Notes under the pieces: model-generated | What the model was told of the DNA's origin: nothing | Databases searched by the model: none | The model's input: only the letters and a program-made list of their open reading frames with translations | From: Candidatus Omnitrophota bacterium | GTDB lineage: Bacteria > Omnitrophota > Gorgyraeia > Zapsychrales > Fredricksoniimonadaceae | NCBI GenBank assembly: GCA_903836515.1 | Contig: CAILQW010000061.1 | Coordinates: 1-61,339 of the forward strand | Length of the DNA stretch: 61,339 nt | Reading direction: 5' to 3' | Position numbers and translations under genes: made by a program | Part shown: positions 7,730-13,175 of the stretch, one piece after another | How the letters are laid out: the number at the start of each line of letters is the position of its first letter | How positions within the stretch are numbered: position 1 is the stretch's first letter

Positions 7730-9214
7730 ATGAGCATTAAACTGCAGTATACGGAAGTCGGCGTGGTCAAGGCGATCAGGGGCTGTATTGTCATTGTGAC
7801 AGGGCTGTCCAATTGCATCAACGGCCAGCTCATCCGTTTCGGTTACGGCACGTTGGGGATGGTGGTCGGGTTCACGCAGGATGAGGCGCAGGTTCTTATC
7901 CTCAAGGAATCCTCCAAGATCCGTACCGGGGATGAAGCCAATGCGGCGATCGAGCCGCTGGTCACGCCGGCCGGCAAGAATTTTATCGGGCGTATCGTCA
8001 ATCCGCTGGGGGAACCCCTGGACGGGCTGGGCCCCATCGAGGCAGATGTCATGGTCCCGATATTTCCCGAGTCGCCGCCGATCCTCGACCGTCAGCCGTT
8101 GAACAAGACCCTGGAGACCGGCATCAAGGTGCTTGATGCCATGATCCCTATCGGACGGGGTCAGCGGGAGCTGATCCTGGGCGATAAAATGACCGGCAAG
8201 ACCACGTTTGTGACCGATACCATCGTGAACCAGAAGGGCAGCGGGGTCATTTGCATCTACTGTTCCATCGGCAAGGCCCGTGCTTCCATGGCCAAAGTCG
8301 TCCAGCTTTTCAAGGATCGCGGCTGTTTCGATTACAGTATCATCGTGTCTGCGGCGGCATCGTCCACACCGGGACAGCAGTATCTGTCGCCGTATGTCGC
8401 CTGTTCTCTGGGGGAGTATTTCATGCAGCGGGGCATGGACGTGTTCATCGGGTTTGACGATTTCACCAAACACGCCTGGTGTTACCGCGAGATTTCCCTG
8501 CTCCTGGGCCGTCCGCCGGGGCGCGATTCCTATCCGGGAGACATTTTTTATCTCCATTCCAAGATGATCGAGCGCTCCTGCTTTCTCAGCAAGGAGAAGG
8601 GCGGCGGATCCATGACGTTTTTTCCGATCGTCGAGATCCTCGAGGGCGACCTGACCGCCTTTGTGCCTTCGAACCTGGTGTCCATGACCGACGGCCAGAT
8701 CTACCTGAGTTCACAGTTATTCGGGGAGGGCCAGAAACCCGCGCTCGACCTGGGGCTTTCGGTTTCGCGTGTCGGATCCAAGGTCCAGTGGTCCGCGATC
8801 AAGTCCCTTTCGGGCCCGTTGCGCCTGGAATATCTCCAGTACCGCGAACTGCTGAGGCTTTCGAAACTGAAGACCTCCGGCCAGTCCGAGGAAATGAAAC
8901 AAAAACTCAAGCGCGGCGCGATCCTGACCGCCATTCTCCGGCAGGACAAGGACTCCCCGGTCTGCCAGGAGATGCAGGTCCTGATCTTTTATGCGTTCAA
9001 CAAGAAATACTTGAACGATCTCTCCATCGAGCAGGTCAATGCGTTCCAGGACACATGCCTGGATTATGTGGTCAGGAACAAGCCTGAGTTCATGGCGCTG
9101 ATGCGCGAACGGCGCAAACTGGACCCCGAGATCGAGAAAATGCTTGATGAGATGATCAAGGGGCTTGTCATGGGCATCGTGGAACAGACCATGGCCAAGT
9201 CCGACCGCGGTTAA
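7730..9214 (+). CDS. atpA: F-type ATPase alpha-like subunit (divergent, short N-terminus)
   Basis: ETGIKVLDAMIPIGRGQRELILGDKMTGKT, DDFTKHA..YREISLLLGRPPGRDSYPGDIFYLHS, TDGQIYL, SVSRVG (Arg finger). Confidence 0.93.
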   Translation: MSIKLQYTEVGVVKAIRGCIVIVTGLSNCINGQLIRFGYGTLGMVVGFTQDEAQVLILKESSKIRTGDEANAAIEPLVTPAGKNFIGRIVNPLGEPLDGLGPIEADVMVPIFPESPPILDRQPLNKTLETGIKVLDAMIPIGRGQRELILGDKMTGKTTFVTDTIVNQKGSGVICIYCSIGKARASMAKVVQLFKDRGCFDYSIIVSAAASSTPGQQYLSPYVACSLGEYFMQRGMDVFIGFDDFTKHAWCYREISLLLGRPPGRDSYPGDIFYLHSKMIERSCFLSKEKGGGSMTFFPIVEILEGDLTAFVPSNLVSMTDGQIYLSSQLFGEGQKPALDLGLSVSRVGSKVQWSAIKSLSGPLRLEYLQYRELLRLSKLKTSGQSEEMKQKLKRGAILTAILRQDKDSPVCQEMQVLIFYAFNKKYLNDLSIEQVNAFQDTCLDYVVRNKPEFMALMRERRKLDPEIEKMLDEMIKGLVMGIVEQTMAKSDRG

Positions 9215-9228
9215 GGAAAGGGGCCGGC

Positions 9229-9495
9229 ATGGCGTCATCGTATACCGGAACATTTCGCTGTGTGATCCTCAGCGCCAAACAATTGATCTTTGAGGGCGAG
9301 GTGAACAGCGTTTTTATTTCCGGCGACCGCGGCGAGTACGAGCTTTTAGCCTATCATTACCCCTTGATCGGGATCGTGGCCGGGGATGTGGTCCTGGACT
9401 GGGATAAACGCCTTGTGGTCAAGGGCGGTGTTGTCAGGTTTTTCGCGAACGAATGCACGATCATGATTGAAGAAAAACAGGTCGCATCCGAATGA
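9229..9495 (+). CDS. atpC: F-type ATPase epsilon-like subunit, N-terminal beta domain only
   Basis: FRCVILSAKQLIFEGEVNSVFISGDRGEYELLAYHYPLI matches the epsilon N-terminal pattern. 88 aa, no C-terminal helical hairpin. Confidence 0.8.
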   Translation: MASSYTGTFRCVILSAKQLIFEGEVNSVFISGDRGEYELLAYHYPLIGIVAGDVVLDWDKRLVVKGGVVRFFANECTIMIEEKQVASE

Positions 9496-9546
9496 AGAGG
9501 CGTTTCCCCGGCAGGGGATGCGGGCGATAACCAGAAAAGGGAAGGT

Positions 9547-9768
9547 ATGCTGGCAGAAACATTCATTATCCTGATGGTTATGTTCATCGCGGTCCTGGGT
9601 CCGTCTTTGGTTATTTCGGTGCTGGGGTACGCGGTCATCATGGCGTTAAGCCGCAACCCGTCCGCGGCGTCCAAGATTTTCATGGGCATGGCGATCATGC
9701 TGGTGTTCGTCGAGGCGATCTCGATCATTTCGATCCTGATCATTTTTCAGCTTTTTTCGGCAAAATAA
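9547..9768 (+). CDS. atpE: F-type ATPase c-like subunit
   Basis: 73 aa, two TM helices, loop SRNP, conserved carboxylate in FVEA. Confidence 0.85.
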   Translation: MLAETFIILMVMFIAVLGPSLVISVLGYAVIMALSRNPSAASKIFMGMAIMLVFVEAISIISILIIFQLFSAK

Positions 9769-10816: not shown

Positions 10817-10849
10817 CCATCCCTCCGCGCGGGGCGGGTAAGGTATTTT

Positions 10850-11704
10850 ATGGGCAAGGCCAACAAGGTCAAACGTGAATTCATCGAGGTCCGGGACCTG
10901 GTCGAACTTGTCCAGGTCCTCAAGGACATCGCGGACATGAAGTTCCATGACCTTTTTGCCAAAAGGGGAGGGTTCCAGAGGTTCGGGGAATCTTTCGCGG
11001 AGTTCTTCCGGCTTTTGCAGACGGTCGAGGTGGCCCATCCGCTTGTTTCCAACAATCACCCCGATGTCTGCATCGTTGTTGTGACGACGGAAGAAGGCTT
11101 TATCGGCGATTTGAACAACAAGGTTGTTGTCCGCGCCATGGAACTGCGCGAGGAATACCCCGGCGCGCGGTTTGTGACCGTCGGCCGCAAAGGCGTCATG
11201 AAGCTCGAGATGATGGGGGTGAAGAGCGAAAAGATTTTTGAGGAGATCGCGGAAAAGGGCATGTACGAGGTCTCGGTCCAGCTGAAAGATTACCTGGTGG
11301 ACCAGGTGTTGAACGGCCATTTCGGCAAAGTCCTTGTTGTGTATCCCTGGCCCCGCGACCTGCAGACGATCAGGGCGCGCGTGGTCAAGCTGCTGCCCGC
11401 CGATTTTATTTTCCAGCAGGAAACCCAGACGGTGGAGAAATTCAGCAAGGTCATCGAGGAATCCGATCCGCTGGAGATCATCGGATATCTGGCCGGGCTG
11501 TGGACATCGTCGAAGATATATGAACTGATGCTTGATACGAGCATCGCCGCGGTTGCGGCCCAGTCCCAGCAGCTGGATACGAGTCTTTTGAACGTCAAGA
11601 AAGAGGCGGGCAACGTCAAGCTCAAGTGGCGCAAGGCCCGCAAAGGCGATATTGACAAGAGCCTCCGCGAAACATTTTCGTCGAGGCTCATGACCCGGCA
11701 CTGA
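10850..11704 (+). CDS. atpG: F-type ATPase gamma-like subunit
   Basis: 284 aa. N- and C-terminal helices, [15 protein letters not shown] (cf. TSDRGLCGxFN), C-terminal [14 protein letters not shown] (cf. RQAxITxELxE). Confidence 0.8.
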
Positions 11705-11732
11705 TCCGGGGCACAACGGAGAAAAGATCCCT

Positions 11733-13175
11733 ATGGACACAACCACAGCTAGTGTACAGACCCCCGCCATACCGCCTGCCGACAAGGTTCCTTCGGGCCG
11801 CATTTCATCGGTCCAGGGTCCGGTGGTCGATGTCACGTTTTATGACGGTGTCAACGCGCCGGCTGTTTACGACTGCATTGAGACATGGACGTACGACGGC
11901 AAGAAGGTCGTTCTCCAGTGCGCGGAGCACCTCGGGCACGGGATCGTGCGCTGCATCGCGCTCCAGGAAACCCTGAACCTTCAGCAGAATGCGCCCTGCT
12001 ACTGCACTTACCAGCCTATTGCCATCCCTATCGGCGACGGCTGTTTTGGCCGGGTCATGGACACCAGCGGACGGCCCCTGGATAATGGCGGCCCTTTTGA
12101 GAACTGCCCCCGGCGTGTCCCCATCCGCCAGGCGGTCCAGGAGGTTACCTTCGATTTGCGCAGCAAGAAACGCGAAATCCCCGAGCTTTTGGAGACCGGC
12201 ATCAAGTATGTGGACCTTCTTTATCCGCTGGTCAAGGGAAGCCGTACGGGCGTTATCGGCGGTGCCGGCTGCGGCAAGACGGTCATCATCCTTGAGCTCA
12301 TCAACAATATCGTCAAGGCCCATGGCGGTGCGTGCGTGTTCACCGGGATCGGGGAGCGCATCCGCGAGGGGAACGAGCTTTATTATGAACTCCATGAAAG
12401 CGGGCTTCTGCACAAGGTCATGCTCGCTTTCGGCCAGATGGACCAGCCGCCAGGGACGCGCGCGGAAGTCGTCAACACGGGGCTGACCATGGCGGAATAC
12501 CTTGTGGCCAAGAACAAGGACGTGCTTTTGTTCATGGATAACCTTTACCGTTTTGTCCAGGGCGGTCAGGAGGTGTCGACGATCCTCGGGCGTGTCCCGG
12601 CCGAAACAGGGTACCAGCCGACCATGGCATCGGAGGTCAACGCGGTCCAGGAGCGCATCCGGTCCGTGGACGGGGGTGGTTCGATCACGGCCATGCAGGC
12701 GGTCTATGTGCCGGCTGATGACATGACCGACCCGGCGGTTGTCGCGATCTTTTCAACGCTCGACGGCAATATTGTCCTTTCGCGCGACTTGGTCCAGCGC
12801 GGGATGTATCCGGCCATCGACCCTTTGCAGAGTTCCTGCGCCAACCTCGATCCGGTTGTTGTCGGCCAGCGTCATTTCCGGCTTTCCCAGGAAGTGATCC
12901 AGCATTTTAACAAGCATAACGCGCTCAAGCGCATTGTCGCGGTCATCGGCATCGAGGAGTTGAGCAAGACCGATCAGCTGATCTACAAGCGCGCCGAGAA
13001 ACTTTACAATTTCATGACCCAGCCTTTTGCCGTTTCCGAGGTTTTTACGGGCAAGAAGGGGGAGTACGTCCATCTCGAGGATAATATTGAAGGTTGTGAA
13101 CATATTCTGGGCGGCGATTACGATCATCTGGAAGCTCCCGATTTTTACATGATCGGCAAGGCGCCGAGGATCTGA
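11733..13175 (+). CDS. atpD: F-type ATPase beta-like catalytic subunit
   Basis: [19 protein letters not shown] (catalytic Glu), [43 protein letters not shown]. Confidence 0.94.

Follow-up and report, generated by a model that had tools for sequence, protein, structure and literature searches.

A pilus-linked F-type ATPase of Omnitrophota with a conserved catalytic head and no recognizable subunit a

A 61,339-nucleotide contig from a Candidatus Omnitrophota bacterium (assembly GCA_903836515.1, contig CAILQW010000061.1; this whole stretch is called the window here) carries, at positions 7730-13175 of the + strand, seven genes of an F-type ATPase that has intact catalytic residues, a strongly conserved c subunit and a stator stalk, and that has no recognizable subunit a. 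The seven genes are the middle of one longer operon, which joins them to a giant repeat protein, to a bitopic envelope protein that we call p443, and to components of a machine resembling type II secretion systems (T2SSs) and type 4 pili (T4P). The class to which this locus belongs, and the view that it is non-respiratory, have been known since 2023 (Seymour et al., 2023, Nat Microbiol; PMC10066038). The explanation that we favor, as probable rather than secure, is that this 'symbiotic' F-ATPase of Omnitrophota is an ATP-hydrolyzing motor that does mechanical work for p443 and/or the pilus platform, and that it is not chemiosmotic.

F-type ATPases are textbook chemiosmotic machines, and to our knowledge the only well-studied conversions of one into a mechanical motor are two Mycoplasma systems, in which the whole of Fo was discarded. 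The Omnitrophota system is widespread (47 species of the Genome Taxonomy Database [GTDB]), keeps both c with its carboxylate and the stator stalk, and has no a; it is found in ultra-small, probably predatory or parasitic bacteria, in which the ATPase is firmly tied to pilus or secretion machinery. Should it be a motor, it would represent an intermediate route from rotary ion pump to force generator, and a second ATPase added to a T2SS/T4P-type machine. If ions still move, an unrecognized stator is implied. Either outcome would be of interest to the rotary-ATPase and pilus fields, and would help to explain how Omnitrophota attach to their hosts.

Anatomy of the cluster and the search for subunit a

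All seven open reading frames (ORFs) of the cluster are intact and lie on the + strand, in the order alpha-epsilon-c-c'-b/delta-gamma-beta. As the first-pass annotation of this DNA had claimed, that order is unlike those of both the canonical operon and the N-ATPases. We identified subunits with Pfam and NCBIfam profiles and their curated (equivalog) cutoffs, and read conservation from alignments of 43 beta, 36 alpha, 43 c, 40 c' and 37 epsilon orthologs. Alpha (494 amino acids [aa], 7730-9214; PF00006, E 1e-67) and beta (480 aa, 11733-13175) both pass as F1 subunits, alpha with 530.3 bits against TIGR00962 (cutoff 484.45) and beta with 530.1 bits against TIGR01039 (cutoff 462.85). Gamma (284 aa, 10850-11704) is recognized by PF00231 (E 3e-25), and epsilon (88 aa, 9229-9495), which consists of the beta-sandwich only, by the N-terminal domain model PF02823. 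Subunit c (73 aa, 9547-9768) is of F type (PF00137, 28.8 bits, cutoff 24), and c' (78 aa, 9810-10046), a divergent c paralog that forms a hairpin of two transmembrane (TM) helices around the loop GRYPTKSA, has no family match. The 251-aa b-delta fusion (10061-10816) is matched by OSCP and b-type models, with PF00213 at residues 98-238. The equivalog scores of the smaller subunits are all below cutoff: 65.9 bits against 194 for gamma, 31.9 against 67 for epsilon, 17.8 against 44 for c, and 31.2 against 57.5 for delta. The true start of b-delta is the ATG at 10061, with AAGGAG ahead of it, rather than 10064; the protein runs from an N-terminal TM helix through a long helix to an OSCP-like C-terminal domain. 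Its best full-length model is the N-ATPase b subunit (TIGR03321), itself a protein of b-delta-like make-up, which is colinear with it over residues 9-231 and scores 54.8 bits, below cutoff.

The F1 head retains what catalysis needs. Alpha carries the Walker A sequence GDKMTGKT and an Arg finger within SVSRVGS; beta carries the Walker A sequence GGAGCGKT, the catalytic Glu within GIGERIREG, the Walker B Asp and the Tyr that stacks on adenine. The Walker and catalytic residues and the Arg finger had been picked out as intact when the DNA was first read, and they prove to be invariant well beyond the window: K182, E208, R209, E212, D269 and R273 of beta are found in all 43 orthologs, with T183 and Y325 each retained in 42, and K157 and the Arg finger R347 of alpha are found in 36 of 36. 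Almost certainly, the enzyme is able to bind ATP and to hydrolyze it, and it has a shaft of gamma and epsilon as well as a c-type partner in the membrane. In two other respects the head is reduced. None of the 37 aligned epsilon orthologs has a full C-terminal hairpin domain, variable tails of ~5-30 residues being all that follows the beta-sandwich; in canonical enzymes, the C-terminal helices of epsilon inhibit ATP hydrolysis. And the alpha orthologs all start ~8 residues ahead of the beta-barrel, without the canonical N-terminal helix of ~20 residues, so that alignments begin at profile position 21-23 and at residue 22-30 of solved alpha chains.

The most conspicuous absence is that of subunit a. 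There is no match to ATP-synt_A (PF00119) in the cluster or elsewhere in the window, and no suitable ORF of 200-300 aa with five or six TM helices anywhere in the window. The intergenic gaps from alpha to beta are 14, 51, 41, 14, 33 and 28 bp in order, so no gene can hide between the subunits. Both the missing multi-TM gene and the shortness of the gaps had been pointed out from the cluster itself, and the first of these observations now extends much further: subunit a was not found within 10 kb on either side in ~55 related loci, distant variants included. Within the same distance of the 47 loci from GTDB species genomes, the only ORFs with at least four TM helices were GspF and antisense shadows of the giant gene. 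No conserved membrane-embedded Arg was seen in c', in the TM helix of b-delta or in that of p443. On current understanding, there is no proton or sodium path in this complex. In Creative Commons-licensed papers and bioRxiv preprints, we found no description of the missing subunit a in these loci, nor of an a-less F-ATPase in any bacterium.

Several membrane proteins were considered as subunit a and set aside. The multi-TM ORFs of the window with recognizable families (an STT3-like protein, an SBF protein and two ABC permeases) do not match ATP-synt_A, and neither do two multi-TM proteins without Pfam domains, of 565 and 483 aa. A 250-aa gene upstream of alpha in the variant locus L051 has a fitting size but is a half-length p443 paralog.

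The c subunit, on the other hand, retains the features of a rotor. Its loop reads SRNPSAASK, in which RNP is invariant and occupies the position of the canonical RQP loop; in canonical c, that loop contacts gamma and epsilon. The TM2 carboxylate is E56 (VFVEAIS), exactly 20 residues past the loop Arg as in canonical c, and it is kept in 41 of the 43 orthologs and in all four distant variants. TM1 contains a Pro, and the GxGxGxG motif is absent from it. The label c' given to the second hairpin protein was right: a profile-profile comparison (hhalign; 40 c' and 43 c orthologs) aligns it with the c family over 72 columns with 97.8% probability (E 8e-13), and it is a real paralog of c. Its TM2 Glu is lost in the window copy and kept in 32 of 40 orthologs. 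The c' gene is lineage-specific and is absent from the variants L050, L051, L053 and L056; in every locus at least one c-type protein retains the TM2 carboxylate. Two loci, L049 (7140-7836) and L033 (3828-4733), have an additional c-type gene each. Neither of the two c copies in L049 has kept the TM2 Glu (V and L stand in its place) and c' has, the reverse of the window.

The operon around the ATPase

The operon, of which the first-pass annotation took in only the middle, reads: giant 13-residue-repeat protein, p443, ATPase, GspE, GspF, pseudopilins, PilMN, PilO. The giant gene stops 3 bp before p443, p443 ends 18 bp before alpha, and gspE begins 2 bp past beta. From the giant gene through gspF the gaps are 2-51 bp, so this part is very probably co-transcribed; scanning 5500-24000 for promoters and terminators brought up no informative signal between genes.

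The arrangement is conserved across species. Gamma has 409 close homologs, and all the named ones belong to Candidatus Omnitrophota. A scan with the gamma alignment through one genome per GTDB species found 47 loci, all in Omnitrophota metagenome-assembled genomes (MAGs), and every locus that spans the region has the order p443-alpha-epsilon-c-c'-b/delta-gamma-beta-GspE-GspF...GspG. Wherever one of the 47 loci extends far enough, the giant gene lies directly upstream of p443. The closest relatives of gamma, of p443 and of the locus as a whole are from Omnitrophota MAGs and reach 87-100% identity. Median identity to the window is high for c (82%), beta (81%), alpha (74%) and GspG (71%), and lower for gamma (58%), b-delta (51%), p443 (43%) and c' (42%). 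Against 1.84 billion representatives of 50%-identity clusters, the gamma profile finds 67 at E<=1e-30 and 418 at E<=1e-10, which makes the family large and diverged; the linkage to GspE/F holds in gamma relatives out to E 1e-30.

The giant protein (2-6376, +) is longer than 2118 aa, its frame being open at the window edge. There are 144 copies of a 13-residue repeat (G[VI]NW[SDNT]D plus seven residues), and the spacing of 'NW' is exactly 13 in 143 instances. The repeats give way to a non-repeat helical C-terminal domain of ~250 aa that ends in VVVKTWFESEE. This domain is common to all giant orthologs, with the ending VVVK[TS]W[FY]ES[ED], and its AlphaFold2 (AF2) model is all-helical and of low confidence (pLDDT 61). 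Giant orthologs whose start lies inside the locus open directly with repeats and have neither signal peptide nor TM helix, the exception being that of L032, which has an N-terminal signal/TM segment. PF25533 (Lysostaphin_N) matches the giant protein with E 7e-63, probably through the 13-residue periodicity.

The p443 protein (443 aa, 6380-7711, +) has no Pfam or NCBIfam family. Its AF2 model (pLDDT 84.9) predicts an N-terminal signal/anchor helix, two tandem modules, each made of a beta-sandwich and a helical bundle, a C-terminal TM helix and a basic tail; a Foldseek search of the PDB with this model gave nothing better than E 0.19. Among its 86 homologs, the named ones are from Omnitrophota except for one labeled Elusimicrobia. 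Every variant locus whose sequence includes the region has a p443-type gene ahead of alpha; a half-length version occurs in L051 and a fused one in L050.

Beyond beta lie the genes of the secretion or pilus machine, all on the + strand. A GspE/PilB-type hexameric ATPase with an N-terminal MshEN domain (13178-14899; PF00437, E 7e-129) is followed by a GspF/PilC-type platform protein (14905-16119; PF00482), whose likely start is the GTG at 14905 although the longest ORF begins at 14830. Next come a GspG-like major pseudopilin (16218-16643, by Pfam), three minor pseudopilins (an N_methyl protein at ~16640-17064, a GspJ-like protein at 16971-17651 and a GspK-like protein at 17652-18671), a GspL-like PilM-PilN fusion (18736-20226), a PilO/GspM-like protein (20168-20842) and a TPR protein (20839-21633). 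The PilMN, PilO and TPR genes are also downstream in related loci. Components E, F, G, J-like, K-like, PilMN and PilO/GspM-like of a T2SS or T4P are thus present, with GspE, PilB and GspF scores below the equivalog cutoffs (for GspE, 579 bits against TIGR02533 and 561 bits against TIGR02538); no secretin or A24 prepilin peptidase was found in the window. The MshEN domain of the GspE/PilB protein (window 13178-14899) is of the type that binds cyclic di-GMP (c-di-GMP), and in several related loci (L002, 12353-14524; L051, 12355-14649) the protein also has a C-terminal PilZ domain. The combination of MshEN and PilZ suggests control of the whole apparatus by c-di-GMP.

Known relatives and competing explanations

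Seymour et al. (2023) described non-respiratory 'symbiotic' F-type ATPase (sF-ATP) loci of Omnitrophota beside type-4a pilus genes; the loci were reported in every Omnitrophota class, with the two systems within 10 kb of each other in 57 of 66 contigs, and the system was proposed to help the bacteria attach to host cells or move on them (PMC10066038). That work was based on an alpha/beta phylogeny, in which alpha was claimed to group with Mycoplasma type 2/3, and on co-location only. The window locus belongs to this class: it is an Omnitrophota locus, its F-type alpha and beta are distinct from the respiratory copy, and a GspE/PilB pilus cluster lies well within 10 kb, beginning 2 bp past beta, in an arrangement shared by the 47 loci. 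The text of that paper, together with those parts of its supplements that were searched, does not mention the missing a, the c/c' pair, the b-delta fusion, the truncated epsilon, p443 or the giant gene with its 13-residue repeats. The paper names the neighboring system a type-4a pilus, whereas by Pfam (T2SSG, J, K and M_b matches) it looks at least as T2SS-like as T4P-like. What we add is therefore the anatomy: an Fo that lacks a and conserves the c carboxylate, with a c' paralog and a b-delta fusion; an epsilon that is short and an alpha that has no delta-binding helix; p443 as a constant partner; a giant protein without a signal; and rearranged variants.

Several features are shared with canonical F1Fo. 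Alpha and beta score above the curated cutoffs; Pfam recognizes gamma, epsilon, c and OSCP; and the positions of the catalytic residues, of the c loop and of the carboxylate are the canonical ones. Unlike canonical F1Fo, however, the complex has no subunit a with its stator Arg in the cluster, the window or the ~55 related loci. Its gamma, epsilon, c, b and delta do not reach equivalog level, epsilon does not have two domains, and b and delta are not separate. The alpha without its delta-binding helix, the extra c paralog, the gene order and the pilus operon complete the list of differences.

N-ATPases have the gene order atpDCQRBEFAG, and three features recall them: TIGR03321 is the best model for the stalk, epsilon comes right after the first catalytic subunit, and there is no separate delta. 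Against the N-ATPase models, though, all scores fall far below the cutoffs, at 497 bits (cutoff 750) for alpha, 446 (752) for beta, 54.8 (225) for b and 15.9 (282) for gamma. N-ATPases are moreover ion pumps with a, AtpQ and AtpR, whereas the Omnitrophota cluster has no a, Q or R and a different order; c' has no AtpR match.

The Mycoplasma systems are similar in concept, but of a different kind. Type 2 (G1, gliding; MMOB1660/1670) and type 3 (F1-like X0, with MIB-MIP; MSC_0618/0619) likewise combine F1-derived alpha, beta, gamma and epsilon heads with the absence of subunit a and with non-chemiosmotic work, which in both types is mechanical and involves a surface protein anchored by C-terminal TM helices. 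Their clusters have no c, b or delta, whose place is taken by a 12-TM protein, by a small protein of the cytoplasm, and by a protein that has a signal peptide and is anchored through C-terminal TM helices. The Omnitrophota cluster, by contrast, has kept c, c' and b-delta and has no 12-TM protein. The type 2 models NF045863 and NF045858 give 393 bits for alpha (cutoff 600) and 404 for beta (cutoff 850), the type 3 models NF045936 and NF045934 give 290 (cutoff 520) and 370 (cutoff 570), and there are no X0 or MIB-MIP homologs in the window. Beta scores 329 bits against G1 beta of M. mobile and 400-454 bits against solved canonical F1 beta chains. By such profile and pairwise scores, rather than by a tree, the cluster belongs neither to the Mycoplasma type 2/3 families nor to the N-ATPases. 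Compared in architecture, p443 is an analog of the anchored surface protein of Mycoplasma.

In summary, these comparisons support the view that the complex is not an ordinary ion-translocating F1Fo, because it has no a and no epsilon C-terminal domain, because gamma, epsilon, c and b-delta score below their cutoffs, and because it is embedded in a T2SS/T4P operon. The first-pass annotation had proposed that ATP is hydrolyzed, that gamma and c rotate, and that the output is something other than ion flux; the departure from ordinary ion translocation is supported by the missing a, the short epsilon and the pilus operon, and the rotation half is only plausible. An operon that combines an envelope-spanning pilus or pseudopilus machine with a bitopic periplasmic protein favors an ATP-driven mechanical motor, and for such use of an F1-like ATPase the Mycoplasma type 2/3 enzymes offer a precedent, by analogy. 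Working independently from phylogeny and co-location, Seymour et al. (2023) had arrived at the same view. We infer the direction of hydrolysis, rotation, formation of a ring and the identity of the mechanical partner, and the motor might then work as follows. What remains of Fo without a, namely c, c' (in the window lineage) and a single b-delta stalk, would hold the catalytically competent F1 head (alpha3beta3, gamma and the short epsilon) at the inner membrane. Hydrolysis of ATP in F1 would turn gamma-epsilon relative to the b-delta stalk, or exert torque on it, together with the c-type subunits bound to it. The recipients of the mechanical work, within the membrane or on its other side, would be p443 and/or the pilus platform and, in most lineages, the giant repeat protein too. 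The purpose of the motor would be attachment, surface movement or prey contact, with no ion pumping and no ATP synthesis.

More tentatively, the a-less Fo may serve as a transmission in the membrane, in which a rotating c/c' ring drives p443 and/or the GspF/GspL platform and the c carboxylate makes contact with the partner instead of transporting ions. F1-derived mechanical motors would then have evolved independently a third time, for the first time in a diderm bacterium and for the first time with the c-ring retained. It is an attractive possibility, and one on which we place a good deal less weight than on mechanical work as such.

Several observations weigh against a mechanical motor. The c carboxylate is almost always kept with no stator partner in sight, and c is as conserved as beta; a conserved carboxylate is what is expected of an ion-binding rotor, and the model that we favor leaves it unexplained. 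Formation of a ring by c is an assumption, because its TM1 is without the Gly-rich packing motif. Since alpha has no delta-binding N-terminal helix, attachment of the stalk presumably differs from the canonical one. The mechanical partner is a guess from synteny. Finally, Zapsychrales, an order that carries the cluster (locus L048), is reported to encode a canonical F-type ATPase too (PMC10066038).

The first and last of these points suggest that the complex could still be an ion-translocating ATPase or synthase, with the stator half-channels supplied by an unlinked atpB or by a non-homologous, unrecognized membrane protein. We consider this unlikely. The carboxylate is at its canonical position, 20 residues past the loop Arg, in nearly all orthologs and in every distant variant; alpha and beta score as atpA and atpD under the curated cutoffs; and some carrier lineages are reported to have a canonical F-type operon as well (PMC10066038). 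Yet no subunit a lies within 10 kb in ~55 loci, no membrane-embedded Arg is visible in c', b-delta or p443, the ATPase operon is joined with a pilus system, and the divergence of gamma, epsilon, c and b-delta would make it hard for them to exchange components with a canonical operon. Most carriers, moreover, may have no such operon to share with. Among 176 complete Omnitrophota genomes, alpha and beta occur in 125 and a gamma at the level of KEGG Orthology (KO) in only 30-35 (preprint 10.64898/2026.06.07.730766); the same preprint reports V/A-ATPases in most Gorgyraeia, and reads the pattern as incomplete F1Fo, which it does not tie to the pilus-linked cluster. Few KO-level gammas together with common V/A-ATPases imply that most carriers of the cluster probably lack canonical F1Fo, and hence a canonical F-type subunit a. 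Loss of a has a parallel in dyskinetoplastic trypanosomes, whose FoF1-ATPase is reported to stay essential as an ATP hydrolase without a (PMC4340940). That case differs in being a eukaryotic secondary loss, in its physiological role (membrane potential via the ADP/ATP carrier) and in having no link to a pilus.

An export ATPase is a second alternative, and an improbable one. The giant protein starts with its repeats and has no signal peptide, and its gene stands immediately before p443 and alpha; it could conceivably be delivered to or through the membrane by an export or unfolding enzyme of type III secretion system (T3SS) kind. The flagellar/T3SS complex FliI-FliH-FliJ sets a pattern for this, being an F1-related ATPase with a b-delta-like stalk and a gamma-like shaft that sits on a secretion or assembly machine, and the b-delta fusion resembles FliH. 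In that scheme alpha3beta3 would correspond to FliI6, gamma to FliJ and b-delta to FliH. But FliI is a homohexamer without a c subunit and with a dedicated export gate, whereas in the Omnitrophota heterohexamer alpha is still a non-catalytic subunit, as is usual in rotary enzymes, and a c-type rotor is retained; and no export-gate homologs (FlhA/B, FliPQR) were found in the window. Nor does the giant protein fit everywhere, since L056 has the ATPase and GspE/F without a giant gene and the giant protein of L032 has a signal/TM segment.

We give similarly little credence to the idea that the Fo-like proteins are a mere membrane anchor, with an F1 that undergoes no productive ring rotation and serves, for instance, as a regulated ATP-consuming switch or as an assembly factor for GspE/F. 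It would account for a c TM1 that lacks the GxGxGxG ring-packing motif, for an alpha without the helix that binds delta, and for a c' that is dispensable in several variants; a passive anchor, however, needs neither the very strong conservation of c, its RNP loop and its Glu, nor that of gamma and epsilon. That the locus is a decaying, functionless remnant of an F-type operon, as the loss of subunit a and of the c' Glu in the window might suggest, is effectively refuted by the conservation data: the ORFs are all intact, the catalytic residues are invariant in 36-43 orthologs, and synteny is constant in 47 species and in a family that is both large and diverged.

Variant loci and other genes of the window

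More distant loci vary in order and content around a constant core of a p443-type protein, alpha, epsilon, c, b-delta, gamma, beta and GspE/F. L051 reads giant, p431, half-length p443 paralog, alpha, epsilon, c, b-delta, gamma, beta, GspE, GspF, GspG. L056 (2718-13527) reads p455, two alpha paralogs, epsilon, c, b-delta, gamma, beta, GspE, GspF; the tandem alpha paralogs are of 487 and 492 aa, and no giant gene lies upstream. In L050 (44-15587), a 2217-aa protein that ends in a p443-like TM region is followed by epsilon, c, b-delta, alpha, gamma, beta, GspE, GspF and GspG. Its alpha and beta are ~50% identical to those of the window, it has no c', and its order is the canonical one minus a, with epsilon moved to the front. 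L054 covers gamma, beta, an MshEN protein, GspE and GspF.

Two further distant matches to the gamma profile, L057 (10001-10978) and L058 (1899-2828), were set aside as orphans in unrelated contexts. Both gamma-like genes (PF00231) are far from any alpha or beta. The first is surrounded by dozens of small ORFs that have no annotation, and its setting looks phage-like; the neighbors of the second are FtsZ and a ThrRS whose editing domain is of archaeal type.

Two features of the database entries deserve a comment. A full locus of the Omnitrophota type is also found in MAGs titled 'uncultured Planctomycetales bacterium' (L011, L019, L020, L023, L028, L030, L033, L036, L037, L040, L042-L044, L046, L047 and L049). 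Their gammas are 47-79% identical to that of the window, and the titles are probably taxonomic mislabels. In L001/L022, which are from a long-read contig of 1.29 Mb (contig_16581), alpha, beta, b-delta, p443, the giant gene and GspF are each split into several ORFs; these splits look like homopolymer frameshift errors rather than pseudogenes.

Directly after the pilus genes of the window lies a glycosylation island (21630-35872, both strands). It encodes a UDP-GlcNAc 2-epimerase, two GT2 glycosyltransferases, LpxB, an 843-aa STT3-like oligosaccharyltransferase (26767-29298, - strand) and two multi-TM proteins without Pfam domains (23418-25115 and 30059-31510). Further along, a second very long ORF (45509-53860, +) encodes 2783 aa without a credible Pfam domain, and it is followed by a porin and a pstSCAB-phoU phosphate-uptake operon (54508-60545).

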